Part shown: positions 4,441 to 52,222 of the stretch, in pieces
Numbering within the stretch: position 1 is the stretch's first letter
How the letters are laid out: every line of letters starts with the position of its first letter
Assembly (NCBI GenBank): GCA_964551945.1
Contig: CAZKFH010000001.1
Coordinates: 81,274 to 145,273, forward strand
DNA length: 64,000 nucleotides
Source of the DNA: an uncultured Actinomycetes bacterium
GTDB lineage: Bacteria > Actinomycetota > UBA4738 > CALAEC01
Direction of reading: 5' to 3'
The notes under the pieces: model-generated
The model's database searches: none
Told to the model about the DNA's origin: nothing
The model's input: only the letters and a program-made list of their open reading frames with translations
Position numbers and translations under genes: made by a program

Positions 4441-5019
4441 TCAGGCGTCGGGTTGCAATCCTGCCAACGTGACGGTGACGAGACGGTGGACCGCCGCCTT
4501 GGTCGGCAGGCCCCTGGCTGCGGCGAGAGAGTGGAGGCAGTAGCTTGCGAGCTCCGCGGGCGCGACGTCCGTGCGGACAACACCGGTGGCAGCTCCCTCG
4601 ATCAGCAGGTCACGAACGATGTTGCGGAGCTGTTTCTCCGCCCGCGCAACCTGCTCGTCTCGATGGAGGAACGAAGCGAGCTCTGAGTCGTGATGCCCGC
4701 GGGTCTTGTGGGAGTTGAGGGCGAAGGCCTCAAGCACGGCCTCGAGCCGGGCCGCAGGGTCCTCGGCTCGATCGCGAACCTCGGCGAGGTGATGGAGGTG
4801 GTGGGAGATCTGATGCTCGTGCCAGGCGAGCAGGATCCCCTCGACGTCGGGGAAGTACTTGTACAACGTCGCTCGGCCGATGCCGGTCTCCTCGGCGATG
4901 CGGGACATCGTGACCGAGAGCAACCCCTGTTCGGCCACGATGGCGGCGGTGGTCTCCACGATCGCGTCGCGTACCTCACGGCGATGCGAATCGATCGTCT
5001 CGGTCCACAGCTTCGGCAC
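4441..5019 (-). CDS. TetR/AcrR family transcriptional regulator
   Basis: N-terminal HTH 'LSVTMSRIAEETGIGRATLYKYF' is the canonical TetR signature. Confidence 0.85.
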   Translation of the reverse strand: MPKLWTETIDSHRREVRDAIVETTAAIVAEQGLLSVTMSRIAEETGIGRATLYKYFPDVEGILLAWHEHQISHHLHHLAEVRDRAEDPAARLEAVLEAFALNSHKTRGHHDSELASFLHRDEQVARAEKQLRNIVRDLLIEGAATGVVRTDVAPAELASYCLHSLAAARGLPTKAAVHRLVTVTLAGLQPDA

Positions 5020-5255: not shown

Positions 5256-5777
5256 ATGCTGATGCCTCCCAACGTCCGCAAGCTTGTGCTCGCGGTGCAT
5301 CTCACGATTTCGATCGGGTGGATCGGCGCGGTCGCTGCCTACATCGCCTTCGACATCGTCGCGGCGGCCGGCGGAGACGCGCAGCAGCTGCGCATCTCCT
5401 ATCTCGCGATGGAGCAGATCGCCCGGTATGTCATCGTTCCCCTGGCCATCGCGTCGCTGCTCACCGGATTCGTTGTGTCCCTCGGGACCAAATGGGGCCT
5501 CATCCGCCATTACTGGGTCGTGATTTCGCTCGCCCTGACGGCCTTCGCGACCCTCGTCTTGCTGAGGGAGATCCGGGTGATCGGCCATTACGCCGACGTG
5601 GCAGGCCACCCGGCGACGTCAAGCGAGGCGCTCCGCGAGCTGCCGAGCACATTGCTGCATTCTGTCGGGGGAATCGTGGTGTTACTGGTGATCTTGGTCC
5701 TCAACGTGTACAAGCCGCGGGGCCTGACCCGATACGGTCGACGCAAAGAGGAGCAGCGCGCGAGACCGGGTGCGTAA
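5256..5777 (+). CDS. integral membrane protein (4 TM, DUF2269-like)
   Basis: 173 aa hydrophobic ORF directly downstream of the small ORF; likely the same transcript and a TetR target. Confidence 0.5.
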   Translation: MLMPPNVRKLVLAVHLTISIGWIGAVAAYIAFDIVAAAGGDAQQLRISYLAMEQIARYVIVPLAIASLLTGFVVSLGTKWGLIRHYWVVISLALTAFATLVLLREIRVIGHYADVAGHPATSSEALRELPSTLLHSVGGIVVLLVILVLNVYKPRGLTRYGRRKEEQRARPGA

Positions 5778-5830: not shown

Positions 5831-6406
5831 ATGACGGGTCGGTTCCTCGCGTTCGTCGCGTTCCTTCTCCTGGCTGCTTGCTCGTCCCCGTCACCTGGCG
5901 AGGCTAAGGTCGTCTCTCCTGAAGAGGGAGACATTGCGCCTCGGTTTGAGCTTCCAACCTCGAATGGCACGCGGATGTCGTTGGAGCAGCTCAGCGGGAG
6001 GTCGGTGCTCCTGTACTTCAGCATGGGTCCCGGTTGACTGCCGTGCATCGAGCAGGTCGTGGACCTGCAGGAGAGCCAGGCATTCGAGGCGCTTGGCGTC
6101 GAGCTCGTCAGCATCTCCCCGGACCACGTCGAGACGTGGCGCGAGGTCGGCGCCGAATACGGTCTCGAATCACCGCTTCTGTCGGATCCCCTCAATCGGG
6201 TTGCTGATCGCTACGGCGTCATGCGCTGGCGGGTGCCGCCGACAGCTGATATCGACTCAGCTGAGCCCGGCCACACCTTCGTTCTCGTCGACGAGGAAGG
6301 AAGGATCGCCTGGATCCAGGACTACGGCGCGCCGGAAAACGGCGGGCTGATGTACGTTCCGCCGGGGGACCTTCTCCCACAGATCGAACGCTCTCTTGCG
6401 GAGTAG
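5831..6406 (+). CDS. selenocysteine-containing BCP/PrxQ-type peroxiredoxin lipoprotein (TGA at 6035-6037 read as Sec)
   Basis: Lipobox 'LLLAAC'. 'GDIAPRFELP…VLLYFSMGPG-[TGA]-LPC…LLSDP' aligns with BCP 'GDIAPKFSLP…VLVYFYPKAMTPGC…LLSD'. The TGA falls on the peroxidatic Cys and the ORF continues in the same frame to 6406. Confidence 0.7.
6052..6068 (+). promoter_or_regulatory. putative SECIS hairpin (GCAGGUC-GUG-GACCUGC) 14 nt downstream of the in-frame UGA
   Basis: Perfect 7-bp stem with a GU-containing loop at the distance typical of bacterial SECIS elements. Confidence 0.55.
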
Positions 6407-6478: not shown

Positions 6479-6934
6479 GTGAGGTGGGAGGAAAGGCGAG
6501 TCTCGGTTGTCGGACGCGTTGCCGTATGCGTTGTGGCGCTGGCTGGGGTGGGATGTGGCCCGGTCGGCGATGACGATGGCGCATCCGGTCCGCCGACGGC
6601 GGTGAGCCCAACGCCGGTTCGCATCGATCCGCGGTTCGAGGGCATCGCAACCGTCTCCGAGGCGGTCGAGGGGCTCGAACGAACGATCCAGGACGTCTAT
6701 CACCTGCAGGTGATCGATTCTCGCGACGGCCTCCTGCTCCTCGAGAGAGCGGAGGAGATCGAGAACGCGTACAAGCAGGGCAACATCACCGAGGCATTCG
6801 CGGGTCTTCAGGAAGCTCACGCCTTCATCGATGCGAGCGTGGCCCGGGGGCACCCTTCCTCGGAGGAAGGTGCCGGGCAGCTCCATCAGTCCATCAACGT
6901 GATGGGGGCGCTCATCGCGGCGAACCCCCCGTAG
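6479..6934 (+). CDS. hypothetical lipoprotein
   Basis: Signal/lipobox-like 'VVALAGVGC'; no recognisable domain. An antisense ORF overlaps but is less protein-like. Confidence 0.35.
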   Translation: MRWEERRVSVVGRVAVCVVALAGVGCGPVGDDDGASGPPTAVSPTPVRIDPRFEGIATVSEAVEGLERTIQDVYHLQVIDSRDGLLLLERAEEIENAYKQGNITEAFAGLQEAHAFIDASVARGHPSSEEGAGQLHQSINVMGALIAANPP

Positions 6935-6937
6935 GGT

Positions 6938-7489
6938 TCACTTCTTGATCAGGAAGGTCAGGCTGGTTCTCGAACCCACTTCCTGAACGCCGATCTTCTC
7001 CAGCTCGAGGCGTTCGAGCTCGCCGTCGGCAAAGAGTCGCAAGCCACTGCCGAGGATCACAGGCATGATGTCGACATGAAGTTCGTCCGCCAGTCCCGCG
7101 CGCAGGAGCTGGTTCAGGACGTCGACGCCACCGACCACCTGAACGGCCTTGTTCCCCGCCGCAGTCTTCGCCTGAGCGACCGCCGACTCGAGGCCGTCGG
7201 TCACGAAGGTGAACGTCAGCTTGTCGTCCTGTTTCGGGGCGACCTTTGGCGGGTGGTGGGTCAGCACGAAGATCGGGACTTGGAACTCGTAGGTGCCGAC
7301 GAACGAGTCGGGATCTCCCATCTCGAAAGTCCTTCTGCCCATGAGGACGGCACCGGTCTCCTCGATCATCTCTTTCATGTGGGTGGTCTCGCGGAGGTCC
7401 GCGAGGTCCGGATAGAGATCAGCCGCGCCGCTGTGATCGGCGACGAAGCCGTCCAAGGACATCGTCATGCCGACGATCACCTTTGTCAT
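6938..7489 (-). CDS. dihydrofolate reductase-like (RibD C-terminal domain) family protein
   Basis: 'MTMSLDGFVA…GRRTFE…VVGG' pattern of the RibD_C/YwjB reductase family. Confidence 0.75.
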   Translation of the reverse strand: MTKVIVGMTMSLDGFVADHSGAADLYPDLADLRETTHMKEMIEETGAVLMGRRTFEMGDPDSFVGTYEFQVPIFVLTHHPPKVAPKQDDKLTFTFVTDGLESAVAQAKTAAGNKAVQVVGGVDVLNQLLRAGLADELHVDIMPVILGSGLRLFADGELERLELEKIGVQEVGSRTSLTFLIKK

Positions 7490-23946: not shown

Positions 23947-24969
23947 ATGGGTACCGCTGCTGTTGCCGTGCTGGGGGCCTCTGGATACACGGGGGCGGAG
24001 CTTCTACGTCTGCTCGCTACTCACCCTGACCTCGAAGTAGCCGCGATTGGAGCTTCCTCGGCTGCGGGGGAGCCCGTCACCTCCCGGTACCCGCACCTCG
24101 ATTTTTATGCGGATCGACTCTTCGAGGATCTCAAGCCCGACGACGTGGCCGGGCGGACCGAGGCTGCGCTTCTCGCGCTGCCGCACGGGGAGAGCGCGGT
24201 CATGGCTCCAGCGCTGTTAGAGGCCGGTCTTCGGGTCGTGGATCTCTCCGGAGACTTTCGCCTCCCCGCCGACGCGTACCCGGGCTGGTACGGGTACGAG
24301 CACCCATCCCCGGCCTGGCTCGAGAAGGCCGTGTACGGCCTGCCGGAGCTGTTCGCCGACGAGATCACCGACGCGGCGCTGGTGGCGAACCCCGGCTGCT
24401 ACCCGACGGCAGTTCTGCTGGGACTAGCGCCGTTGGCGAAGGCGGGCCTGATCGAGACCGACGGCATCGTGATCGACGCGAAGTCCGGCGTCTCGGGCGC
24501 CGGGCGCATGCCGACCGACTCGACGCACTTCGCCACAGCCGACGGCAGCGTCCGTCCGTACAAGGCCGGCGGCGTGCATCAGCACACGCCGGAGATCGAG
24601 CGGTACCTCGGCGCCTCAGTCACGTTCGTGCCGCACCTGGTCCCGTCGGTGCGCGGCGTGCTGACGACGAGCTACGCGCCGACCAGCTCGGACGCGGCGA
24701 CGCTGCTTGGGGCGCTGAACGAGGCGTACTCGGCGGCGCCGTTCGTCCGCGTGCTCCCGGAGGGGACGCTGCCGGACAGCAAGCGGGTCCAGGGCACGAA
24801 CGTGTGCGAGCTCGGCGTCGTGGTCGACGGCCGGACCGGGACCGCGATCGTCATCGGAGCGGTGGACAACCTGGTGAAGGGCGCGGCCGGGCAGGCGATC
24901 CAGAACCTGAACCTGATGCTCGGCCTCCCCGAGACGACCGGGCTCGAGGCGCAGGCGGTGTACCCGTGA
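23947..24969 (+). CDS. argC: N-acetyl-gamma-glutamyl-phosphate reductase
   Basis: 'VLGASGYTGAELLRLL…ANPGCYPT' are canonical ArgC motifs. Confidence 0.9.
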   Translation: MGTAAVAVLGASGYTGAELLRLLATHPDLEVAAIGASSAAGEPVTSRYPHLDFYADRLFEDLKPDDVAGRTEAALLALPHGESAVMAPALLEAGLRVVDLSGDFRLPADAYPGWYGYEHPSPAWLEKAVYGLPELFADEITDAALVANPGCYPTAVLLGLAPLAKAGLIETDGIVIDAKSGVSGAGRMPTDSTHFATADGSVRPYKAGGVHQHTPEIERYLGASVTFVPHLVPSVRGVLTTSYAPTSSDAATLLGALNEAYSAAPFVRVLPEGTLPDSKRVQGTNVCELGVVVDGRTGTAIVIGAVDNLVKGAAGQAIQNLNLMLGLPETTGLEAQAVYP

Positions 24970-24995
24970 GCGCGCCGCTTGTCACCCGCTCAAAA

Positions 24996-25017
24996 TGTGG
25001 CTACAATTGCAGCCACA
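24996..25017 (+). promoter_or_regulatory. 22-bp near-perfect palindrome tgtggctacaattgcagccaca overlapping a TTGTCA-N17-TACAAT promoter; putative antitoxin operator
   Basis: Arms tgtggct/agccaca are perfect. The TACAAT -10 sits in the palindrome centre and ends 11 nt before the antitoxin ATG, so the transcript would be leaderless. Confidence 0.5.
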
Positions 25018-25275
25018 ATGTCCGTCGGCATCCGAGACCTCAAGAACCGAGCCACCGAGATCCTGCGCGGGCTGGAGGAGCGCGGGAAGGCCGTGCTGGT
25101 CACGCGGCACGGGAAGCCGGCCGCCCTCATCCTGCCGATGGGATCACCGGAGGCGGAGGACTACATACTCGCCCATGCGCCAGAGATCGTTACCTCCCTC
25201 AGAGAGGCGGAGGCGGATCTTCGAGCGGGACGCACCAAGACGCTGAAGTCGTATCGGCGTCGCCGCGGGCTATAG
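25018..25275 (+). CDS. type II toxin-antitoxin system Phd/YefM family antitoxin
   Basis: 'MSVGIRDLKNRATEIL…VLVTRHGKPAALILP' is the canonical YefM N-terminus. Confidence 0.75.
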   Translation: MSVGIRDLKNRATEILRGLEERGKAVLVTRHGKPAALILPMGSPEAEDYILAHAPEIVTSLREAEADLRAGRTKTLKSYRRRRGL

Positions 25276-25281
25276 ACGCCC

Positions 25282-25560
25282 GTGGCCGAAGTTCGGCTCG
25301 CCCGCAGGGCCGAGAAGGAGCTGGACGGCCTATCCAAGCGCGTGGCTGTTCGAGTCCTCGACGCCCTGGAAAGGCTCGGTGCGGACCCGGGTTCGCCGGA
25401 GCTCGATGTGAAAGTGCTGGCCGGGCGGAGGCCGTGGCGACGACTGCGCGTCGGCGATCACCGAGTCGTGTTCAAGCTCTCGGACCGGGGGCGCGTGGTC
25501 CTAGTTGCGCGCGTTATCGACCGCCGGGAGCTGGAGAGAGTCGTCCGAACGCTCCCCTGA
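25282..25560 (+). CDS. type II toxin-antitoxin system RelE/ParE family toxin
   Basis: 92 aa, GTG start 6 nt after the antitoxin stop; RelE/ParE-like C-terminus 'RVGDHRVVFKL…VLVARVIDRRE'. Confidence 0.7.
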   Translation: MAEVRLARRAEKELDGLSKRVAVRVLDALERLGADPGSPELDVKVLAGRRPWRRLRVGDHRVVFKLSDRGRVVLVARVIDRRELERVVRTLP

Positions 25561-25573
25561 AGGGAGCGAACCG

Positions 25574-26743
25574 GTGAGCGTCACCACGCCGAATGGGTTT
25601 CGGGCCTCCGGCGTGGTCGCGGGCCTGAAGGAGAGCGGCCGGCCGGACCTCGGGCTGCTGGTGGCCGACGGGGGAACGTCCGCCGCCGGGCTCTTCACCA
25701 CGAACGCGTTCCCTGCCGCGCCGGTGACGGTCTCGCAGCGTCACCTGCTGAGCGGGCGAGCTAGCGCCGTCGTGGTCAACAGCGGTCAAGCGAACGCCGC
25801 GACCGGCGACGTGGGCATCGAAGACGCCGCGAGCACGTGCGCCGCCGTCGCCGAAGCTGTGGGGGCTGAGGCCGAGGACGTGCTGTTGTGCTCTACCGGC
25901 GTGATCGGGCCTCGGGTGAAGCTGGCCGAGCTGATCGCGGCGCTTCCCGGTGTGGTGGGGGAGCTAACCGCCGACGGCGGCTCGAGGTTCGCGGAGGCGA
26001 TCCTCACGACCGACACGGTCTCTAAGGAAACCGTGGTCCGGGGCGAGGGGTTCACGGTCGGCGGGTGCGCGAAAGGCGTGGGGATGATCGCGCCGCGGCT
26101 GGCCACGATGCTCGCTTTCCTAACCACAGACGCAGAGGTCGAGCCGGCGATCCTGGATGCAGCCTTACGGCGCGCGGTTGCTCCGGTATTCAACGGACTC
26201 ACGGTGGACAACTGCCCGAGCACGAACGACACCGTGCTCCTCCTCGCGAGCGGCGCCTCGGGTTTCAGGGCGGACCCGGGGACGCCGCAGCTCGCAGCGC
26301 TCGAGACGGCGCTCGCAGAGGCCGCGCGAGACCTCGTGCATCAGATCCAGCTCGACGCCGAGGGGGCCACCAAGGCGATCGCGGTTCAGGTGTCGGGTGG
26401 ACTCGGCGACGACGCGGCGACGGTGGCGCGGGCGGTGGCGACCTCGATGCTCGTCAAGACCGCGGTGTTCGGCGGTGACCCGAACCCCGGACGGATCCTC
26501 CAGGCCGTTGGCGCGAGCGGGGTGCCGATCATCCCCGAGCGGGTCTCGATCGACCTCGCCGGCCACCGGGTGGTCACGGGCGGCGTGATGGTTCCGTTCG
26601 ATCAGGGCGCGTGCGCCGAGGCGCTGAAGGAGCGCGATGTGGCCATCGAGGTGGACCTCGGGCTCGGCGACGAGCAGGCCACCGCGTTCGGCTGCGACCT
26701 CGGCTACGAGTACATCCGGATCAACGCGGAGTACACGACATGA
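25574..26743 (+). CDS. argJ: bifunctional glutamate N-acetyltransferase/amino-acid acetyltransferase (ornithine acetyltransferase)
   Basis: 'ATMLAFLTTDA' autocleavage site plus overall ArgJ pattern; GTG start after a GAAGGGAG RBS. Confidence 0.85.
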   Translation: MSVTTPNGFRASGVVAGLKESGRPDLGLLVADGGTSAAGLFTTNAFPAAPVTVSQRHLLSGRASAVVVNSGQANAATGDVGIEDAASTCAAVAEAVGAEAEDVLLCSTGVIGPRVKLAELIAALPGVVGELTADGGSRFAEAILTTDTVSKETVVRGEGFTVGGCAKGVGMIAPRLATMLAFLTTDAEVEPAILDAALRRAVAPVFNGLTVDNCPSTNDTVLLLASGASGFRADPGTPQLAALETALAEAARDLVHQIQLDAEGATKAIAVQVSGGLGDDAATVARAVATSMLVKTAVFGGDPNPGRILQAVGASGVPIIPERVSIDLAGHRVVTGGVMVPFDQGACAEALKERDVAIEVDLGLGDEQATAFGCDLGYEYIRINAEYTT

Positions 26744-27012
26744 GTAGCTCGGAGCTCCTCTTCAACGTGGTGTTGATCGGTCAAGGCATCGGCCTGCTTT
26801 TCCTCGCCAGGTTGATCGGGTCCTGGTGGCTCCTTCTCGTCCCAGTCGTCGGATGGCCGCTGTTCCTTGTCGGCGTCGCAAAGGACTGGTGGGAGGTTGA
26901 GTTCTTCGATACGGAGGCCGGTTACACCCTTGCATTCCCGTTTGCAGTGCTTGGAGCGGTCGGGGTTGTCGTCGGCCAGGTCCTCCATCGTCCTCGGAAG
27001 GAAGCCAGGTGA
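26740..27012 (+). CDS. small membrane protein (2 TM) embedded in the arg operon
   Basis: ATGA overlap with the argJ stop and GTGA overlap with the argB start; hydrophobic 90-aa ORF. Confidence 0.45.
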   Translation: MSSSELLFNVVLIGQGIGLLFLARLIGSWWLLLVPVVGWPLFLVGVAKDWWEVEFFDTEAGYTLAFPFAVLGAVGVVVGQVLHRPRKEAR

Positions 27013-27914
27013 CAAGCGAGCCTGTGGTGCGCGAGCGCGAGGTGGCGCAGCGGACGCTGTCGAAGGCGCGGGTGCTCCTCGAGGCGCTCCCGTACATGAA
27101 GGAGCACTCGGGGAAGACCGTGGTGGTCAAGCTCGGCGGGGCCGCGATGGCCGACCCGGGCCCGGCCTCGAGCTTCGCGGAGGACGTGGCGCTGCTCCGC
27201 CTGGCCGGCGTGCATGTCGTGGTGGTGCACGGGGGCGGGCCGCAGATCAGCGAGCTCTCCGAGCGGCTCGGCATCGAGACCCGATTCGAGCGCGGGCTCC
27301 GCGTGACCGACGCGGAGACCCTCGACGTGGCGCGGATGGTGCTCATCGGCAAGATCAACACCGAGATCGTGGCCGCGATCAACCGGCAAGGCGTCCCGGC
27401 GGCCGGCGTCTCGGGCGACGACGGCGCGCTGTTCGTGGCGCGGCCGAAGGAGCGGACCGAGGAAGGCGTGGACCTCGGCCTGGTGGGCGACATCGTCGAG
27501 GTGCGCCCCGCACTGCTCCAGGACCTGATGCAGCGGTTCGTCCCGGTCGTGGCTTCCACCGCGACCGACGGGCGCGGGCAGGGCTTAAATGTGAACGCAG
27601 ACGAGGCCGCGGCCGCGCTCGCCGTCGCCCTCGGCGCTGAGAAGCTGATCTTCATGACCGACGTCCCCGGCCTGTACGAGGAGCTCGGCGGCGTCGAGCA
27701 GCTCCTGTCCGAGGTCTCGCTGGCGGAGTGCGAGCGGCTGCTCGCGGACGGCGTGGTCGAGGGCGGCATGGTGCCGAAGGTCGAGGCCGTGCTCCAGGCA
27801 ATGAAGGGCGGCGTGCACAAGGCGCACATCCTGGACGGCCGCGTGCCGCACGCCCTGATCCTCGAGATGTTCACTCCCGAGGGCCTCGGAACGATGATCA
27901 CGGAGGATTCGTGA
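27009..27914 (+). CDS. argB: acetylglutamate kinase
   Basis: 'VVVKLGGAAM…VVVHGGGPQI' amino-acid-kinase motifs. Confidence 0.9.
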   Translation: MTSEPVVREREVAQRTLSKARVLLEALPYMKEHSGKTVVVKLGGAAMADPGPASSFAEDVALLRLAGVHVVVVHGGGPQISELSERLGIETRFERGLRVTDAETLDVARMVLIGKINTEIVAAINRQGVPAAGVSGDDGALFVARPKERTEEGVDLGLVGDIVEVRPALLQDLMQRFVPVVASTATDGRGQGLNVNADEAAAALAVALGAEKLIFMTDVPGLYEELGGVEQLLSEVSLAECERLLADGVVEGGMVPKVEAVLQAMKGGVHKAHILDGRVPHALILEMFTPEGLGTMITEDS

Positions 27915-29059
27915 GCACGCTGGCCGCGCGCGAGGCCGCGGCGATCATGCCGACCTACACGCGCTACCCGGTCACGTTCGTGCGCGGGGAGGGGATGCGG
28001 TTGTGGGACGCGGAAGGGACGGAATACCTGGACTTCGCGGCCGGGATCGCGGTTGCGTCGATCGGGCACTCGCATCCGAAGTGGGTCGAGGCGGTCTGCT
28101 CACAGGCCCGCGAGCTGGCGCACGTGAGCAACCTGTTCTACACGGAGCCGCAGGTCTCGCTGGCGGAGCGGTTGGCGTCAGTGACTGGGTTGTCACAGGC
28201 GTTCTTCGCCAACTCCGGCGCCGAGGCGAACGAGGCCGCGGTCAAGCTCGCTCGGCGCGCGACCGGCAGGTCGAAGGTCGTGGCCGCGATCGGCAGCTTC
28301 CACGGGCGGACTTTCGCGACACTCGCGGCGACCGGACAGAAGGAGAAGCACGAAGCGTTCCAGCCACTGCCGGACTGGTTCACGCACGTGCCGTACGGCG
28401 ACGTGAGCGCGCTGCGCGCGGCGGTGGACAACGAGACGAGCGCGGTGCTGCTCGAGCCGGTGCTGGGGGAGGGCGGCGTGGTGCCGGCGCCCGATGGCTA
28501 CCTCGAGGCGGCCCGCAGGGTTTGTGACACGGCGGGCGCGCTCTTGGTGCTCGACGAAGTGCAGACTGGTGTCGGTCGGTGCGGCGCTTGGCTCGCCTCG
28601 CAGCTCGCGGAGGTCAGGCCCGACATCGTCACGCTGGCGAAGGCGCTGGGCGGCGGGTTGCCGATCGGCGCGTGTCTCGCTCGCGAGGGGATCGCGTTCG
28701 CGGCGGGGGAGCACGCCTCGACGTTCGGCGGCGGACCGATCGTGTGCGCGGCAGCGCTCGCGGTGCTCGACGTGATCGAGGAAGAGGGCCTGCTGGAGAA
28801 CTCGCAGCAGCGTGGCGAGCAGTTGGTGAAGGGTCTCGGGGAGCTCTCCGTGGAGCCGCGTGGCCTCGGGCTGCTGGTCGGCGCCAAGGTTCCGGGCGAG
28901 AACGCCGACGGGGTCGTGCGCGCCGCGCTGAAGGAACAGCTGGTTCTCACGGTCGCGGGCAAGGACGTGGTCCGGTTCACCCCGCCGCTCATGGTTTCGG
29001 CGGACGAGGTCGACGAGGCGGTCGCACGTTTCTCGCGGGCGCTGGAGCACGCCGCATGA
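27911..29059 (+). CDS. argD: acetylornithine aminotransferase
   Basis: Class III PLP aminotransferase motifs ('LDEVQTGVGRCG', 'TLAKALGGGLPIGA'). GTG start overlaps the argB stop. Confidence 0.85.
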   Translation: MSTLAAREAAAIMPTYTRYPVTFVRGEGMRLWDAEGTEYLDFAAGIAVASIGHSHPKWVEAVCSQARELAHVSNLFYTEPQVSLAERLASVTGLSQAFFANSGAEANEAAVKLARRATGRSKVVAAIGSFHGRTFATLAATGQKEKHEAFQPLPDWFTHVPYGDVSALRAAVDNETSAVLLEPVLGEGGVVPAPDGYLEAARRVCDTAGALLVLDEVQTGVGRCGAWLASQLAEVRPDIVTLAKALGGGLPIGACLAREGIAFAAGEHASTFGGGPIVCAAALAVLDVIEEEGLLENSQQRGEQLVKGLGELSVEPRGLGLLVGAKVPGENADGVVRAALKEQLVLTVAGKDVVRFTPPLMVSADEVDEAVARFSRALEHAA

Positions 29060-29517
29060 AGCGCAGGCGGCAGAACGCGATCCTCGACCTGGTCCGGAAG
29101 GAATCGCTCGGCTCGCAGGCGGCGATCCTCGAGCGGCTGCGCGAGCAGGGCTTCGAGGTCACGCAGCCGACAGTGTCGCGTGACCTGGAGGAGCTCGGGC
29201 TGGTTCGTGCGCGGGACGAGGAGGGGCACCTCCGATACGTTCCTCCCGGCGCGGCGACCAACGGGCACGGGGTCGAGCGCCTGCACCGCGTGCTGGCGGA
29301 GTTTGTCATGGGGCTCGAGGCCTCGCGGAACATCGTCGTGGTGCGGACTCCCCCGGGCTCCGCGAACACGGTTGCGCAGGTGATCGACCAGGTCGGGCTG
29401 GAGGACGTGATCGGTACGGTTGCCGGCGACGACACGATCCTGGTGGTGACGCGCGAGGGCGTCCGCGCGACGACCGTCGTGAAGCGCCTGCAGGACCTGA
29501 TCGAGGGCGCGGCATGA
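29056..29517 (+). CDS. argR: arginine repressor
   Basis: N-terminal wHTH 'QAAILERLREQGFEVTQPTVSRDLEEL' and C-terminal 'GTVAGDDTILVV' oligomerisation/arginine-binding motif. Confidence 0.85.
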   Translation: MKRRRQNAILDLVRKESLGSQAAILERLREQGFEVTQPTVSRDLEELGLVRARDEEGHLRYVPPGAATNGHGVERLHRVLAEFVMGLEASRNIVVVRTPPGSANTVAQVIDQVGLEDVIGTVAGDDTILVVTREGVRATTVVKRLQDLIEGAA

Positions 29518-32177
29518 CCGACCGCGTGGTGCTCGCGTACTCAGGTGGCCTGGACACCTCGGTCGCCGCGCGGACGCTCCGCGAGGAGCGGGGCCTCGAC
29601 GTCGTGGCGGCCTTCGTCGATCTCGGCCAGCCGTTCGACCGCGTGGAGGTGGAGGAGCGCGCAGCCGCGGCGGAGGTTGAGCTTCACGTCGTCGATGCGC
29701 GTGAGGTCTTCGCGTCTCAGTTCTGTTTGCCCGCGCTGCACGCCAACGCGCTGTACGAGGGCAAGTACCCCTTGGTCTCCGCGCTGGCCCGCCCATTGAT
29801 CGCCGCCGAGGTGGTCCGCATCGCCCGCGAGACCGGCGCGAAGTTCGTCGCGCACGGCTGCACGGGTAAGGGGAACGACCAGGTCCGGTTCGAGACGTCG
29901 TTCGCGGCGCTCGGGCCCGATCTCGGCGTGATCGCGCCGGTTCGTGAGGAGTCCCTGTCACGCGAGGAGTCGCTGGAGCGCGCAGCCCGGTGGGGGATCC
30001 CGATCCAGACGGTGGCCAAGAAGTACTCGGTGGACGAGAACCTGTGGGGCCGGACGGTCGAGTGCAGCGAGCTCGAGGATCCGTGGATCGAGCCGCCCGC
30101 CGACGCGTTCGAGCTCACCGTCGATCCGCGCCACGCGCCGGACGAGCCTGCGGAGATCGTGATCGGGTTCGAGGGCGGCGCGCCGGTGTCCCTCGACGGC
30201 GCGGGGTTGTCGCCCGTCGATCTGATCGCACGGCTCACCGAGGTCGCCGGCGCTCACGGGTACGGGCGCGTGGACATGGTCGAGAACCGCCTGGTGGGCA
30301 TCAAGTCGCGCGAGCTGTACGAGGTGCCCGGCGCGCTCGCGCTGATCGCCGCGCACCGCGAGCTTGAAGACCTGACGCTCGAGCGTGACCTGGCGCACGA
30401 GAAGGCCGGGCTTGAGCGCCGCTGGGCCGAGCTCTGCTACTACGGGCAGTGGTACGGACCGCTGCACGCGGGGCTGCGCGCGTTCATGGCCGAGACGCAG
30501 GCCGATGTCACCGGCGAAGTGCGGGTTCGATTCCACAAGGGCACGGCGACCGTGATCGGCCGGCGCAGCCCCAAGTCCCTCTACGACTTCTCGCTCGCGA
30601 CGTACGAGCGCGGCGCGGACCGGTTCGACCAGCGTCAGGCGGCCGGGTTCATCTCGCTGTGGTCGCTCCCGATCAAGACGTGGGCCGCGCGCGGAGCGAA
30701 CGTGCAGGGCGTGCCCGCTGCACCTGCTGCACCCCCACGCGCGGCCCAACCTGCTCCGACGCAGACCGAGTCGGCCCCGGTTGCGCCGGCGCCTTCGGGA
30801 AGTGTTCGTCCCACCTGGGCCGGTCGGTTCGAGTCGGCCCCCGCCGAGGATGCGATGGCGTTCACGAAGTCCCTCGGGTTCGACCGGCGGCTGATCCTGC
30901 AGGACCTCCTGGTCACGCGGTTGCATGTGGCCGCACTCGGACGGGCGAAGCTGCTCGAGGCAGAGGAGCGGAAGACCCTGGATGGCGAGCTCCAAAACCT
31001 GGCGGCGGAGGCGCGAGCGGGGGAGTTCCCGTTCGACGACGCCGACGAGGACGTGCACTCCTCCGTCGAGCGCGTCCTGACCGAGCGGCTGGGTGACCTC
31101 GGCGCGAAGGTGCACGCGGGTCGGAGCCGCAACGACCTGGTGGTCACCGATCTCCGTCTGTGGATCACCGAGGCCGCGGAGCGACTGACGGCGGCGTGCG
31201 AGAAGCTGGCCATCGCGCTCGCGAACCGGGCCGAGCAGAACGCCGAGACGATCGTGCCCGGGTACACGCACCTGCAACGAGCACAGCCGATCACGCTCGG
31301 TCACCACCTGATGGCGCATGCTTCCCCGCTGGCGCGCGACGCCGACAGGTTCCGGCTTGCCGCCGCCTCCGCGGGAACCTCGGCTCTCGGTGCCGGAGCG
31401 CTCGCCACATCCACGCTCGGGCTCGGCGCGACCGCGACCGCGGAGGTCCTCGGCTTCGACGTCTTCGACAACTCGATCGACGCCGTGAGCGATCGTGACT
31501 TCGCGCTGGACTTCCTGGCGGCCTGCGTATCGACCGCGGTGCACGTCTCCCGGCTGGGCGAGGACTTGGTGCTGTGGTGCTCGCAGGAGTTCGGGTTCGC
31601 TCGGCCCCACGATGCGTACGCGACCGGGTCGAGCATGATGCCGCAGAAGCGGAACCCGGACGTCGCGGAGCTGGCACGCGGCAAGGCCGGCCGTGTCCTG
31701 GGCGACTACGTGCAGCTCGCGACCGTGCTCAAGGGCCTGCCGCTCGCATACGCGCGCGACCTCCAGGAGGACAAGGAGGCGGTGTTCGACGCGCACGACG
31801 CGCTGCTCCCCGCACTCGAGGCGCTGAGCGGCATGGTCGAGTCGCTCACGTTCGACAAGGAGCGCATGCGCCAGGCCGCGAGCGACCCGTCATTGCTTGC
31901 CACGGACCTCACCGAGCACCTGGTCCGCAAGGGCGTCCCGTTCCGCGAGGCACACGAAGCGATCGGCGGTCTCGTCGCGAAGCTTGAAGCTGAAGGACGA
32001 ACCCTCGGCGACGTCAAGCCAGACGAGTGGTCGGGGCTCGATGGGCGTCTCGACGAGGAGACGGGCGTCCTGCTCGATCCTGAGATCTCGATCTCTCATC
32101 GCGCCGGGCCCGGTGGTCCGTCACCGAACTCGGTCCGCGACCAGGTCGCGGTGCTGCGCTCGAAGCTCGGCCGCTGA
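29514..32177 (+). CDS. argG/argH: argininosuccinate synthase fused in-frame to argininosuccinate lyase (ArgG-ArgH) via a Pro/Ala-rich linker
   Basis: N-terminal 'AYSGGLDTS' ArgG P-loop through '…SLWSLPIKTW'. A ~40-aa PAAPAAPPRAAQPAPTQTESAPVAPAPS linker (nt ~30687-30812). Then ArgH 'WAGRFE…' to 'GSSMMPQKRNPD'. No stop codon between the two. Confidence 0.7.
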   Translation: MTDRVVLAYSGGLDTSVAARTLREERGLDVVAAFVDLGQPFDRVEVEERAAAAEVELHVVDAREVFASQFCLPALHANALYEGKYPLVSALARPLIAAEVVRIARETGAKFVAHGCTGKGNDQVRFETSFAALGPDLGVIAPVREESLSREESLERAARWGIPIQTVAKKYSVDENLWGRTVECSELEDPWIEPPADAFELTVDPRHAPDEPAEIVIGFEGGAPVSLDGAGLSPVDLIARLTEVAGAHGYGRVDMVENRLVGIKSRELYEVPGALALIAAHRELEDLTLERDLAHEKAGLERRWAELCYYGQWYGPLHAGLRAFMAETQADVTGEVRVRFHKGTATVIGRRSPKSLYDFSLATYERGADRFDQRQAAGFISLWSLPIKTWAARGANVQGVPAAPAAPPRAAQPAPTQTESAPVAPAPSGSVRPTWAGRFESAPAEDAMAFTKSLGFDRRLILQDLLVTRLHVAALGRAKLLEAEERKTLDGELQNLAAEARAGEFPFDDADEDVHSSVERVLTERLGDLGAKVHAGRSRNDLVVTDLRLWITEAAERLTAACEKLAIALANRAEQNAETIVPGYTHLQRAQPITLGHHLMAHASPLARDADRFRLAAASAGTSALGAGALATSTLGLGATATAEVLGFDVFDNSIDAVSDRDFALDFLAACVSTAVHVSRLGEDLVLWCSQEFGFARPHDAYATGSSMMPQKRNPDVAELARGKAGRVLGDYVQLATVLKGLPLAYARDLQEDKEAVFDAHDALLPALEALSGMVESLTFDKERMRQAASDPSLLATDLTEHLVRKGVPFREAHEAIGGLVAKLEAEGRTLGDVKPDEWSGLDGRLDEETGVLLDPEISISHRAGPGGPSPNSVRDQVAVLRSKLGR

Positions 32178-32587: not shown

Positions 32588-32871
32588 GTCGTCGCCAACG
32601 AGGTGAGTTCACACAGCGCGTGCGTGACCGCATCCTTTCATTGCGGCCGGGGGAGGTCGCCACATACGGGGAGATCGCTGAGGAGGCAGGGTCCCCCCGA
32701 GCGGCTCAGGCTGTCGGCAACGTGCTCTCGCGAGGGGATGGACTCCCGTGGTGGAGGGTCGTAACCGTCACGGGACGCTTCGCGCCTGGGCACGAGGCTG
32801 AGCAGGCGGCGCAGCTTCGGCGCGAGGGTCACACGGTTGGCCCAAACGGCTTCCAGAGGTTCAGGGCGTGA
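32584..32871 (+). CDS. atl: alkyltransferase-like protein (MGMT-family DNA-binding domain lacking the catalytic Cys: 'PWWRV' instead of 'PCHRV')
   Basis: 95 aa. 'GEVATYGEIA…GNVLSRGDGLPWWRVV' is the MGMT C-terminal domain with Trp at the Cys-acceptor position, as in ATL proteins. GTGA overlap with the upstream gene. Confidence 0.7.
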   Translation: MSRRQRGEFTQRVRDRILSLRPGEVATYGEIAEEAGSPRAAQAVGNVLSRGDGLPWWRVVTVTGRFAPGHEAEQAAQLRREGHTVGPNGFQRFRA

Positions 32872-33542
32872 CCGCCGACCTCGACGCCCGCGTTCGCCTC
32901 CACATCTACCGAACGTTCGTGGACCGCGGGACGCCGCCGACGACCGAGGAGACCGCCTCTGCGCTCTCGCTGTCCGAGCCCGGAGCCGCCGATGCGTACC
33001 GGCGGCTGGCGGAGGCGCACGCGATCGTGCTCGAGCCCGGCTCCACCGACGTCTGGATGGCGAACCCGCTCTCAGCCCGGCCCACGCCCTTCGAAGTTCG
33101 GACCGCGGTTGGCCGCAGTTGGTATGGCGTGTGTGCGTGGGATGCGCCGGGCGTGCTGGCGATGGTCGGCAGCGATGGTGTGGTCAGGTCGAGCTGCCCC
33201 GACTGCGACGAGCCGCTCGAGCTGATCGTCGAGAACGGAGAGATGCGCGGCCCGGAGGGGGCGGTCGCCCACTTCCTCGTCCCCGCCAAGCGCTTCTGGG
33301 ACGACATCGGTTTCACCTGAAGCACGATGCTTCTCTTCCGGTCGGAAGAGCACGTCGACACATGGTGCGGGGAGCGAGGCGATCAGAAGGGCGCGGTTCT
33401 CACGCTCGACCAGCTCTGGGGGCTGGGGAAGGCTTGGCACGGTCCGCGACTCGAACTCGACTGGCGCCGTCCGGCACCCGACGAGGCAGAGACGCTCTTC
33501 GCTTCCCTCGGACTCACCGGGGACTTCTGGCGACTGACCTGA
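32868..33542 (+). CDS. MerB-like organomercurial lyase homolog with in-frame TGA (33318-33320) at the catalytic Cys159 position; predicted selenoprotein
   Basis: 'YGVCAWDAPGVLAMVG' aligns with MerB 'YAWCALDTLIFPALIG' (Cys96/Asp99). 'GFT-[TGA]-STMLLFRSEEHVDTW' aligns with 'SFCCHVHFFASVPTAEDW'. Cys-to-TGA spacing is 62 against 63 in MerB. The two parts are in the same frame. GTGA overlap with atl. Confidence 0.6.
33333..33350 (+). promoter_or_regulatory. putative SECIS hairpin (CUCUUCC-GGUC-GGAAGAG) 12 nt downstream of the in-frame UGA
   Basis: Perfect 7-bp stem (8 bp with a 2-nt loop alternative), GU in the loop, at the canonical bacterial SECIS distance. Confidence 0.5.
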
Positions 33543-49670: not shown

Positions 49671-50141
49671 TCAGGCGACCGTGAACTCCCCGCGCATACC
49701 GAGGAACGCGTGCGGCGTGCCGTCCGGAGCCTCCACGAAGCACACATACCCGAACCTGCCGGGAACCAGAGCCGCGGCGAACTCCGCTGACTCGCCGGGT
49801 TGGGCCTCGACGCGATTCACAGCTTGCGTGAGCTTGCCGATCTCTTTCTCCGGGAGCTCGATGATCTCCTCGATGCTCTGCGGACCTGTGATGTACGCGA
49901 GATACAGCTCGTGCGGCTCCTCGCCGGTGTTCTCGAGGACAAAGGTGTACTCGCCTTCGGCGACCGTAGCGGGCGCCAACTGGAACTCGTACTCGACTGC
50001 AGTGATCGGGATCTCGTCACCGATACCGCCGCCGAGAGTCTGCTCCTCGACCGGCTGCCCGGGCCGGGCATCGATCGTCGGGTCGTCCTGCGCGCACGCT
50101 CCGAGGACCAGGGTGAGCGTGACCAGGAACAGCCGCCTCAC
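49671..50141 (-). CDS. cupredoxin-like lipoprotein (possible type-1 copper site Cys…His…Met)
   Basis: Lipobox 'LVLGAC'; 'HELYL…GYVCFVEAPDGTPHAFLGM'. Start overlaps the upstream EF-G-like stop. Confidence 0.45.
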   Translation of the reverse strand: MRRLFLVTLTLVLGACAQDDPTIDARPGQPVEEQTLGGGIGDEIPITAVEYEFQLAPATVAEGEYTFVLENTGEEPHELYLAYITGPQSIEEIIELPEKEIGKLTQAVNRVEAQPGESAEFAAALVPGRFGYVCFVEAPDGTPHAFLGMRGEFTVA

Positions 50142-52222
50142 TTATGCGCCTCTTCCTTCTCCTTCTGGGACTCGGCGATCACCTTGTCGGCGAGGTGCGA
50201 GGGCACTTCCTCGTAGTGCGAGAACGTCATGGTGAACACGCCGCGCCCTCCGGTGATCGAGCGTAGGTCGATCGAGTAGCGCGTCAGCTCCGACTGGGGG
50301 ACCTGCGCGAAGACCCGCGTCTTGCCCGTGCCGGTCGGGTTCATCCCCGACACGCGCCCGCGTTTCGTGTTGAGGTCGCCGATCACATCACCGGTCATCG
50401 AGTCGGGGACGAGAACGTCGAGGTCCATAACGGGCTCGAGGAGCACGACGCCCGACTTCTGCACGGCCTCCTTGATCCCGATCGAGCCGGCGATCTGGAA
50501 CGCCATGTCGGACGAGTCCACGGTGTGAAACTTTCCGTCGTGAAGGGTCACGCGCAGGTCGACCATCTGGTGGCCGGTCGTCCCTTCCTCCATCGCCTTG
50601 CGGATGCCCTTCTCCACCGACGGGATGAACTGGCTCGGGATCGCGCCGCCGTGGATCTTGTTGATGTACTCGAAGCCGCCGCCTCGCTCGAGCGGCTCGA
50701 CCTTCATGTGCGCAACGGCGTACTGGCCGTGGCCCCCGCTCTGCTTCACGTGGCGCCCGATCGCCTCCACCGCCGAGCGGATCGTCTCCTTGTACGGGAC
50801 GCGCGCGGGGTGGCTGATGACCTCCACGCCGAACTTGCGCAGCATCCGCTCCGCCATCACGTCGAGGTGCGCCTCGCCCATGCCGTACATCACGGTCTCG
50901 TGGGTGTCTGCTTTTCGCTCGACGCGGAACGTCGGATCCTCTTCCTGCAGCCGGTGGTACGCGGTGGAGAGCTTGTCCTCGTCGCCCTTCGTCTTCGGCT
51001 CCACCGCGACCGCGTGGAGCGGCTCCGGCAGCTCGAGCGCGGCGACCGTCACCGGTGCCGATTTCTCCGAGAACGTGTCGCCCGTGTGCGTGCCCGACAG
51101 CTTGGCAACCGCACCGATGTCGCCGGCCGGCACCTCCGCCACGTTCTCGTGTTCCTTGCCGCGCATCGTGAAGAGCTGATGAACACGCTCGTCGGAGTTC
51201 TGCGTGGCGTTGTGCACCGTCGTGTCGGGACGGAGCTTGCCGGAATAGACGCGGAACAGGTTGATGCGACCGACGTAGGGATCGGAGACGGTCTTGAAGA
51301 CGAACGCGGCCAGGGGCCCGTTCGGATCGTTGGGAAGCTCCTGCTCCTCGCCCTCCTTCGTCATCGCCTTGGCGGGCGGCCGGTCGAGCGGCGAGGGGAA
51401 CTCGTCCACGATCAGGTCCGCGAGCCGGTCGACCCCAATCCCCTTGGAGGCGGCGCCGACGAGAACCGGCGCGATCCTGGCCTCAGCGAGTCCACCGCGG
51501 ATCCCCTTGACGATGTCCTCCTCGGGCAGCTCTCCTTCTTCCAGGTAGCGCTCGAGGAGCGCGTCGTCGGACTCCGCGACGGACTCGGCCAGCTTCTCTC
51601 GAAGCGGGTCGGCCTGGTTGTGTAGCTCCTCGGGCCAGTCGCTCTCCTGGCCCTTCGGGCCCGATGGGTAGCGGTACGCCTTGTTGGTGAGGAAGTCGAC
51701 CACGCCTTCGAAGCCGTGCTCCTCGCCGATGGGGAACTGGAGCGGTGCGACCTGGGTGCCGAACGACTGCACGAGCTGGTCGAGCGTCCGCTGGAACGAG
51801 GCGCGCTCCCGATCCATCTTGTTGATGAAGAACGCGCGCGGGAGGTTGTGCTCGACCGCGAGCTCCCAGACGACCTCGTGCTGCACTTCCACGCCGTCCA
51901 CGGCAGAGACCACGAACAGGCAGGCATCCACGGCGCGGAGCGCGGCGCGCACATCGCCGATGAAGTCCGCATACCCGGGGGCGTCGAGGATGTTCAGCTT
52001 GTTGTTGCGCCACTCGATGGGGGTCAAGGCGAGGGAGACGCTGATCTGTCGCTTGACCTCTTCGGGCTCGAAATCGCTGACGGTATTGCCGTCCTCGACG
52101 GTTCCCATCCGGGTGGTCACACCCCCCAGGAACTGAAGGGCTTCGGCGAGCGTCGTCTTGCCGCTCCCTCCGTGGCCGACGAGCAGGACGTTGCGGATGT
52201 TGCCGGCTTCGTAGGTGTTCAA
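50138..52222 (-). CDS. elongation factor G paralog (EF-G2-like translational GTPase)
   Basis: 'VGHGGSGKTTL', 'DAPG', 'NKMD' G-motifs and full five-domain EF-G architecture; 694 aa. Confidence 0.85.
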   Translation of the reverse strand: MNTYEAGNIRNVLLVGHGGSGKTTLAEALQFLGGVTTRMGTVEDGNTVSDFEPEEVKRQISVSLALTPIEWRNNKLNILDAPGYADFIGDVRAALRAVDACLFVVSAVDGVEVQHEVVWELAVEHNLPRAFFINKMDRERASFQRTLDQLVQSFGTQVAPLQFPIGEEHGFEGVVDFLTNKAYRYPSGPKGQESDWPEELHNQADPLREKLAESVAESDDALLERYLEEGELPEEDIVKGIRGGLAEARIAPVLVGAASKGIGVDRLADLIVDEFPSPLDRPPAKAMTKEGEEQELPNDPNGPLAAFVFKTVSDPYVGRINLFRVYSGKLRPDTTVHNATQNSDERVHQLFTMRGKEHENVAEVPAGDIGAVAKLSGTHTGDTFSEKSAPVTVAALELPEPLHAVAVEPKTKGDEDKLSTAYHRLQEEDPTFRVERKADTHETVMYGMGEAHLDVMAERMLRKFGVEVISHPARVPYKETIRSAVEAIGRHVKQSGGHGQYAVAHMKVEPLERGGGFEYINKIHGGAIPSQFIPSVEKGIRKAMEEGTTGHQMVDLRVTLHDGKFHTVDSSDMAFQIAGSIGIKEAVQKSGVVLLEPVMDLDVLVPDSMTGDVIGDLNTKRGRVSGMNPTGTGKTRVFAQVPQSELTRYSIDLRSITGGRGVFTMTFSHYEEVPSHLADKVIAESQKEKEEAHK

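Follow-up and report, generated by a model that had tools for sequence, protein, structure and literature searches.

An open reading frame (ORF) at positions 5831–6406 (forward strand) of a 64,000-nucleotide stretch of contig CAZKFH010000001.1, from an uncultured Actinomycetes bacterium, very likely encodes a selenoprotein in which an in-frame UGA is decoded as selenocysteine (Sec). The whole stretch is referred to here as the window. The predicted product is a redox lipoprotein with a UxxC motif, and the UGA is followed within the coding region by a hairpin that resembles a bacterial selenocysteine insertion sequence (SECIS). This assignment is made with high confidence at the level of the gene, and the physiological proposals that follow are graded lower. 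Translation revealed only one internal stop, the TGA at 6035–6037, within the sequence SVLLYFSMGPG-(stop)-LPCIEQVVDLQ, such that the peptide spanning the Sec would read SVLLYFSMGPG-U-LPCIEQVVDLQESQAFEALGVELVSISPDHVETWR. When the stop was replaced by Cys, the Pfam domain AhpC-TSA (PF00578) matched the window product across it with E = 6.5e-21 (75 bits against a cutoff of 26), and the Redoxin domain did so with E = 2.3e-13. TGA is also the commonest ordinary stop in the window, terminating 35 of the 65 predicted genes. Reassignment of UGA was therefore ruled out, and the recoding proposed here is local, with the genetic code unchanged.

To compare the gene with its relatives, the best 120 homologues among 5.8 billion proteins were collected, and a pattern search with the C-terminal family signature, restricted to one genome per species, returned 104 relatives, of which the best 80 were used. 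The TGA codon was scored in 79 loci, and the hairpin alignment comprised 80 sequences. The best 80 relatives came from metagenome-assembled genomes (MAGs) of Actinomycetota and Chloroflexota, the latter mainly Anaerolineae. The homologous codon was TGA in all 79 scored loci, in two phyla and at identities down to ∼40%, in the context FSMGPG-U-xxC in Actinomycetota-type sequences and FHMAxG-U-PPC in Chloroflexota-type sequences. The redox motif was UxxC in 77 of these loci and UxxU in the remaining two (L057 and L077). Among the relatives, the ratio of nonsynonymous to synonymous substitution rates (dN/dS) had a median of 0.17 over the 12 codons that precede the TGA and of 0.31 over the 36 that follow. 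Given that both values are low, the two halves are constrained as protein in one reading frame.

In the protein databases the family is broken at the stop. Among the best 120 homologues, 116 are C-terminal fragments of 107–129 residues that start just past it (query coverage of 50–64%), and most of those with a name are called “peroxiredoxin.” One N-terminal database fragment of 75 residues stops at ...GPG. Full-length forms numbered only 4 of the 120. The full-length proteins P0021 and P0073 carry Cys at the Sec position, in the motif GPG-C-PPC, and the gene for P0021 has a TGC codon there with the downstream hairpin intact. In P0020, a 9-nt deletion has removed U-x-x. Because one form combines TGC with an intact hairpin and another has lost the nine nucleotides of U-x-x, the Cys forms seem to have arisen recently from Sec forms. 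More distant Cys relatives (P0124–P0136; 34–41% identity) contain EG(V/I)G-C-xx-C-W together with PGHTF and, at the level of sequence comparison, the CxxC family was confirmed as the parent stock of the Sec clade.

Several individual loci deserve mention in their own right. The gene at L081 (1983–2570) carries TGC, retains its SECIS hairpin as an intact “fossil,” and overlaps a TlpA-like paralogue at the stop of the latter, and L082 (968–1528), which is preceded by a CopC-CopD gene, lacks exactly the nine nucleotides for U-x-x. The two U-x-x-U loci, both of Chloroflexota/Dehalococcoidia, have two TGA codons 9 nt apart (locus coordinates 2747–2758 in L057 and 6112–6123 in L077) and a single hairpin; the second UGA is separated from the loop by only 12 nt, less than the usual 16–37 nt. 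At L077 a cytochrome c gene directly follows the UxxU gene, and in the database protein P0122 the C-terminal part is fused to a cytochrome c domain. One family member (L036, JAIWHF010000120.1) comes from a contig of low coverage in a MAG that is labelled Methanosarcinales. Given that its sequence is near-identical to the Anaerolineales loci L041, L042, and L053, it is probably a binning contaminant.

The hairpin GCAGGUC-GUG-GACCUGC is formed by codons for (E)Q-V-V-D-L-Q. Its calculated free energy is −10.1 kcal/mol when folded alone, and a 50-nt stretch reached −22.5 kcal/mol (z = −2.9), a stability matched by 0 of 200 shuffled sequences. The published consensus for bacterial SECIS elements (bSECIS; PMC13188914, Fig. 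2A) describes a loop of 3–9 nt, an upper stem of 4–16 bp, a G in the first two loop positions that is usually followed by G or U, a UGA-to-loop distance of 16–37 nt, and a minimum free energy of −7.5 kcal/mol or lower. The window hairpin agrees with this description at every point (3 nt, 7 bp, GU, 21 nt, and −10.1 kcal/mol). Like the fdhF-type SECIS of Escherichia coli, it is a stem-loop placed right after the UGA within the ORF, with GU opening a small apical loop and a spacing within 16–37 nt, whereas it is shorter than that element, has a simple 7-bp stem and a triloop (or, in relatives, a pentaloop), and is unrelated in sequence. Rfam returned no SECIS or other meaningful match, either at the gathering threshold or at E ≤ 10, an outcome to be expected of short, family-specific SECIS elements in bacteria.

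The helix was seen in 80 of 80 sequences in an ungapped alignment. With the 7-bp structure 93.6% of cells were paired, compared with 17–39% when the 3′ arm was slid by one to three columns, and RNAalifold independently found a 5-bp core with zero broken pairs. Compensatory changes that maintain the structure were observed at two pairs (numbered as in alignment A2). Pair 28–36 is AU in 48 sequences and GC in 30, with none broken, and pair 27–37, likewise unbroken, is GC in 72, AU in 5, and GU in 1. Loop nucleotides G31 and U32 are invariant throughout the 80. Hairpins of the relatives have loops of 3 or 5 nt and stems of 5–7 bp, and the 17-nt core alone reached −7.5 kcal/mol or lower in 63 of the 80.

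The same pairing is apparent in the choice of codons. Where the hairpin encodes Ile (ATC), the Asp codon is GAT (50/50), and where it encodes Val (GTN), the Asp codon is GAC (30/30). As a control, the remaining Asp codons in these genes were counted, giving GAT:GAC ratios of 310:280 in Ile-type genes and 104:191 in Val-type genes; this within-gene comparison replaced a control based on hairpins of Cys homologues, which was uninformative given the intact hairpin of P0021 and the deletion in P0020. Gln CAA occurs exclusively with Leu TTG (5/5). The Leu codon of the hairpin is only ever CTG or TTG, and 45% of the other Leu codons in those genes are of other types. Here, one sequence serves both the peptide Q-V/I-V-D-L and an RNA structure, and a change of amino acid is compensated by a synonymous change. 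A separate regularity was observed in the 30 Val-type hairpins, in which the third bases of both Val codons (A2 columns 30 and 33, window positions 6058 and 6061) are always complementary (GTG-GTC in 11, GTA-GTT in 10, and GTC-GTG in 9). These bases are too close for a normal pair, and their complementarity could reflect either clade structure or a requirement of loop geometry.

A lipobox-like Cys after a hydrophobic segment was present in 63 of 77 relatives by a strict pattern and in ∼74 of 77 when common variants were accepted, and the window protein is predicted to be lipid-anchored at the outer face of the membrane. An earlier sequence-only reading of the window had proposed a lipoprotein encoded by a frame open except for the TGA, with a perfect 7-bp hairpin 14 nt after it, and had suggested a SECIS prediction and a comparison of orthologs. 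Translation confirmed the frame, the hairpin was recovered as described, and the lipobox LAAC with Cys17 proved to be conserved in most relatives. Both comparisons came out in favor of a selenoprotein, which is now strongly supported by the invariant TGA, the purifying selection on either side of it, the Cys codon of the rare P0021 and P0073 forms, and the covarying hairpin.

The protein family and the position of the Sec within the active site were examined by alignment and structural modeling. The best match of solved structure was Bacillus subtilis ResA (E = 3e-8 with phmmer), with C-E-P-C falling on U-L-P-C. A hidden Markov model (HMM) of the family, built from 79 full-length translations, also placed the ResA CEPC on U-L-P-C, with Cys74 on Sec, and set the T-P-G-C of E. 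coli BCP on U-L-P-C without gaps. In this ungapped alignment M-G-P-G-U-L-P-C faces P-K-A-M-T-P-G-C of BCP, with Pro replaced by Met and Thr by Sec. In an AlphaFold model of the Cys form P0021 (predicted local distance difference test score of 84.5), the strand ALLYF leads into a six-residue loop that ends in Cys77, the Sec equivalent, and a helix is predicted from the next residue. Given that the helix begins right after the Sec equivalent, alignment and model place Sec at the exposed, attacking N-terminal position of UxxC, which corresponds to the Thr position of peroxiredoxins, and Cys72 is the equivalent of the peroxidatic Cys. The sequence-only reading had put the UGA on the peroxidatic Cys of T-P-G-C. 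This placement needs a three-residue gap, and the alignment of MTPGC with MGPGU that it implies was rejected for the ungapped one on the basis of the HMM alignment and the helix in the P0021 model. The accompanying assignment to BCP/PrxQ-type peroxiredoxins was not upheld either; the view of UxxC as an arrangement of Sec-containing thiol oxidoreductases was, as U-L-P-C fits the published UxxC/UxxU class described below.

The E-P-G-H-T-F loop lies in a region that holds the cis-Pro of thioredoxin-fold proteins and the catalytic Arg of peroxiredoxins. From the general thioredoxin fold it would be expected near the active site. It aligns with GIHRI of BCP, and the catalytic Arg is absent, as is the PxxxTxxC motif. 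The loop residue that takes the place of the cis-Pro can be located only to within one or two positions (HMM and hand alignment). The His of PGHTF is retained in the distant CxxC relatives. All of the NCBIfam models concerned scored below their cutoffs, namely thiol peroxidase (BCP; 49.9 against 140), PrxQ (35.1 against 260), ResA (38.5 against 170), and SelL_rel_redox (32.5 against 120). There was no match to Pfam SCO1-SenC (PF02630), and the Sco copper site of CxxxC plus a distal His was not found in the protein.

By its published definition, the class of peroxiredoxin-like (Prx-like) thiol:disulfide oxidoreductases combines an AhpC-TSA domain with UxxC and, on sequence grounds, the window gene belongs to this known class of UxxC/UxxU selenoproteins, the class of Kryukov and Gladyshev (2004). 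The literature separates it from Sec-peroxiredoxins, which have TxxU. Prx-like selenoproteins (pfam00578, UxxC/UxxU) have been catalogued (PMC9312934 and PMC13188914), and “Prx-like 1/3” appear in PMC2398784. The catalogued proteins share with the window clade the AhpC-TSA/Redoxin domain, Sec as the first residue of UxxC, the occurrence of UxxU variants, and a coding-region SECIS directly after the UGA, and for them, too, function is predicted only. The catalogued examples come mostly from Deltaproteobacteria (Geobacter, Syntrophus, and Desulfotalea) and marine metagenomes, whereas the window clade is found in Actinomycetota and Chloroflexota, is lipoprotein-anchored, has invariant motifs of its own (EPGHTF and DYGAPENGGLMYV), and is almost wholly Sec rather than Cys-dominated. 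This comparison was made with the published descriptions of the class, whose reference sequence is WP_010940744.1.

Other known proteins were also compared. SelL and SelL-related proteins share a Prx-like fold with the window protein and have UxxU, as do L057 and L077, whereas the window protein has UxxC. ResA, TlpA, and CcmG are CxxC reductases that act outside the cytoplasm in the maturation of cytochrome c and CuA. The window protein resembles ResA, Bradyrhizobium TlpA, and CcmG in its predicted membrane tether and extracytoplasmic location and in the alignment of CEPC with ULPC. In the closest genome relative, ccdA and resB-resC adjoin the gene, a coupling that the window itself lacks. The window protein differs from these reductases in having Sec for Cys, Gly for the Trp of W-C-x-x-C, EPGHTF as the cis-Pro loop, and an extra C-terminal segment with DYGAPENGGLMYV. 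Compared with BCP/PrxQ proteins, including the TxxU Sec-peroxiredoxins, it lacks PxxxTxxC and the catalytic Arg, and its Sec lies three residues upstream of the peroxidatic position.

The genes found beside the relatives give some indication of function. In the nearest species among the reference genomes (L001/L087), the Sec gene is the fourth gene after ccdA, resB, and resC, the same place as resA, in a cluster of the System II cytochrome c maturation type with a caa3 cytochrome oxidase operon alongside. Of the 26 Actinomycetota-type loci, 12 have a TlpA-like paralogue near the gene and 7 have CcdA, which was found in 8 loci over all relatives. A CopC-CopD-type gene that ends 240–440 nt before the TGA is located immediately upstream in L016, L017, L022, and L082. 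P1B heavy-metal ATPases were found within 4.5 kb in 18 loci, and in 11 loci, spread over both phyla, they directly precede the Sec gene in the same orientation. Their architectures include CPH with a His-rich N terminus, CPC with CxxC domains, and cupredoxin plus HMA; next to P0004, a relative with 77% identity across its annotated C-terminal fragment, a cupredoxin-HMA ATPase begins 67 nt after the stop. Cytochrome c genes follow the Sec gene in six Chloroflexota-type loci. The common theme of these neighborhoods is transmembrane electron supply (CcdA) and the handling of heme and copper cofactors.

The most likely model for these data is the following. SelB, on which insertion presumably depends, and Sec-tRNA(Sec) would recognize the 7-bp/GUG hairpin and insert Sec at the UGA, and the protein would then be exported, with lipid attached at Cys17. 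On the precedent of ResA, TlpA, and CcmG, Sec69 of Sec69-Leu-Pro-Cys72 would attack a substrate disulfide, and Cys72 would resolve the mixed selenenyl-sulfide. The Se-S bond would be re-reduced by the membrane electron shuttle CcdA, with electrons presumably flowing in that direction. To judge from the neighborhoods of the relatives, the substrates are probably cysteines kept reduced for heme or copper insertion, and candidates include apocytochrome c CxxCH and the copper-site cysteines of Sco or CoxB. It is a tentative and rather doubtful suggestion that the clade takes part, through selenium, in the trafficking of copper at the cell surface, acting as a dedicated partner of P1B ATPases and CopC-CopD importers. 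In that role it might relay Cu(I) via Sec69, Cys72, and His148 plus Met, or might keep the cysteines of Sco-, CoxB-, or CopC-type proteins reduced.

Several observations weigh against a Sec-decoded reductase of this kind. Neither the 64-kb window nor 0.92 Mb of sequence from related loci yielded selA, selB, selD, or tRNA-Sec. ARAGORN detected no tRNA-Sec in the window or in 60 loci, and tblastn with E. coli SelA, SelB, and SelD queries against the window and the 0.92 Mb matched only the G domain of an EF-G-like gene. The tracking of the pairing partner by codons has a log10 P of about −23 if the sequences are independent, a value that overstates their independence given that they share phylogeny; both states of pair 28–36 are present in both phyla. 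The overall fold and the family-HMM scores are slightly nearer to BCP-type peroxiredoxins than to ResA, so that a peroxide-reducing activity is possible. The neighbors in the window itself (a TetR regulator, a membrane protein, and a 151-residue ORF) give no functional hint, and no homologue of ccdA, tlpA, or a copper transporter occurs within the 64 kb. We infer that the window organism decodes Sec. As for the EF-G-like gene (50138–52222, reverse strand), its 694-residue GTPase product is 31% identical to the SelB query over the G domain and was rejected as SelB on length and N-terminal sequence.

The absence of Sec machinery from the DNA searched would suit an ordinary stop at the TGA, leaving either a pseudogene or two small genes (a 68-residue lipopeptide and a 115-residue fragment from GTG 6059) with the hairpin as a by-product of QVVDLQ. 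Gene callers annotate only the 115-residue fragment, and given that CAG-GTC and GAC-CTG are the preferred codons for Q-V and D-L, the peptide alone could yield the hairpin. Such an origin is nevertheless extremely improbable. The stop is at the identical codon in every relative scored, purifying selection acts in the one frame to either side of it, and a thioredoxin fold interrupted at the active site would not function. Moreover, Cys stands at the stop position in the rare forms of full length, and synonymous choice at the hairpin Asp follows the pairing partner (GAT with Ile, GAC with Val, without exception) and not the codon usage of the genome.

If the UGA is decoded, the fold scores leave room for a true BCP/PrxQ peroxiredoxin in which Sec replaces the peroxidatic Cys and reduces peroxide directly. 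Several features make this highly unlikely: the NCBIfam BCP score is far under its cutoff, PxxxTxxC is missing with its Pro changed to Met and its Thr to Sec, the catalytic Arg is replaced in the invariant EPGHTF loop, known Sec-peroxiredoxins have TxxU and not UxxC, and the neighbors are ccdA, resBC, tlpA, and copper transporters rather than peroxide-stress genes. The copper pumps among those neighbors would also fit a Sco-like chaperone that primarily binds or relays Cu(I) instead of serving as a disulfide reductase, with Sec69, Cys72, the invariant His148, and perhaps Met65 and Met174 as ligands. This too is unlikely, given that SCO1-SenC is unmatched, that Sco is structurally more distant than BCP or ResA, and that the spacing is UxxC and not CxxxC. 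In a strand-anchored hand alignment the His would stand two residues away from that of B. subtilis Sco, and the association with ccdA, tlpA, and resBC suits a reductase equally well. A Sec-decoded UxxC redox lipoprotein remains the preferred reading of the gene.

Indirect support for Sec decoding was obtained from a second UGA gene in the window, which the sequence-only reading had also noticed and which was recovered here as a MerB-like ORF. Pfam MerB spans its stop with E = 5.6e-31, and a hairpin follows. The best 120 homologues of this protein are all N-terminal pieces of 140–178 residues (mostly 146–151) that correspond to the first 63–67% of the query. These fit termination at the 33318 TGA and thus suggest a second conserved selenoprotein family. 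Against Sec-containing SaoL the ORF scored 46 (cutoff of 140), and it has T-U-S instead of the reported C-U motif. Fragments of both UGA genes are recorded on one NCBI contig of 160,541 bp. Two unrelated families in one window, each with a family-wide UGA and with similar hairpins, are hard to explain without Sec decoding. Scans for further in-frame TGA codons by codon usage and GC position were noisy, and only a looser GC-position scan listed both 6035 and 33318, among many ordinary cases of a stop followed by the next gene.

The features described are collected in Table 1. Elsewhere in the window (23947–32177, forward strand), genes judged from N-terminal sequences only to be argC, argJ, argB, argD, and argR lie in that order. 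They are followed by an 887-residue ORF that starts like argininosuccinate synthase and is possibly an ArgG-ArgH fusion.

Table 1. Features of the window and of related loci (window coordinates unless a locus is named)
Feature	Coordinates	Strand	Basis or remarks
Selenoprotein coding sequence (predicted)	5831..6406	+	191 residues; translation, Pfam, dN/dS; alternative start at in-frame ATG 5810
Putative signal peptide and lipobox L-A-A-C	5831..5881	+	Cys17 at 5879–5881; N terminus MTGRFLAFVAFLLLAAC
UGA, predicted Sec69, position 1 of U-L-P-C	6035..6037	+	TGA in 79/79 loci; Cys forms; aligned with ResA Cys74
Cys72, putative resolving partner in UxxC	6044..6046	+	Invariant C/U in relatives
SECIS hairpin (predicted)	6052..6068	+	7-bp stem 6052–6058/6062–6068; GUG loop 6059–6061
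E-P-G-H-T-F loop before the central beta-strand	6263..6280	+	Invariant; 79/79 relatives
C-terminal family signature D-Y-G-A-P-E-N-G-G-L-M-Y-V	6320..6358	+	Pattern used for the search for relatives
Divergent TetR-family regulator	4441..5019	-	PF00440 TetR_N, PF21597
Multi-pass membrane protein, possible operon partner	5256..5777	+	173 residues; no Pfam/NCBIfam match; not conserved beside relatives
Downstream co-directional ORF	6479..6934	+	151 residues; no family match
Terminator-like hairpin	6922–6939		After ORF 6479..6934
MerB-like ORF (alkylmercury lyase family)	32868–33542	+	TGA 33318–33320; DDIGFT-U-STMLLFRSEEHVDTWC
Hairpin of the MerB-like ORF	33333–33350		7 bp, GGUC loop; starts 12 nt after UGA
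P1B ATPase upstream of the family match			L003, L009, L012, L026, L041, L051, L053, L058, L068, L076, L078
P1B-type copper ATPase neighbor	L085 4641–7121

In summary, the selenoprotein class is already known, and what is new is an unannotated clade of Actinomycetota and Chloroflexota that is almost obligately Sec, together with hints of a connection to copper and cytochrome maturation. The window gene and several hundred of its relatives appear in public databases solely as “peroxiredoxin” fragments of 107–129 residues, so that annotation pipelines overlook an entire selenoprotein clade in members of these phyla from soil and groundwater, and likewise the MerB-like family. If the link to copper is true, it would represent a role for a selenoprotein in copper homeostasis and oxidase assembly, of which no description was found in the literature. 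Near-exclusive use of Sec makes the clade unusual. Its members are predicted to be exported and lipidated, and the gene is found repeatedly beside ccdA, resBC, cytochrome oxidase genes, and four kinds of copper transporter, a context that provides a testable lead on the use of selenium outside the cytoplasm.

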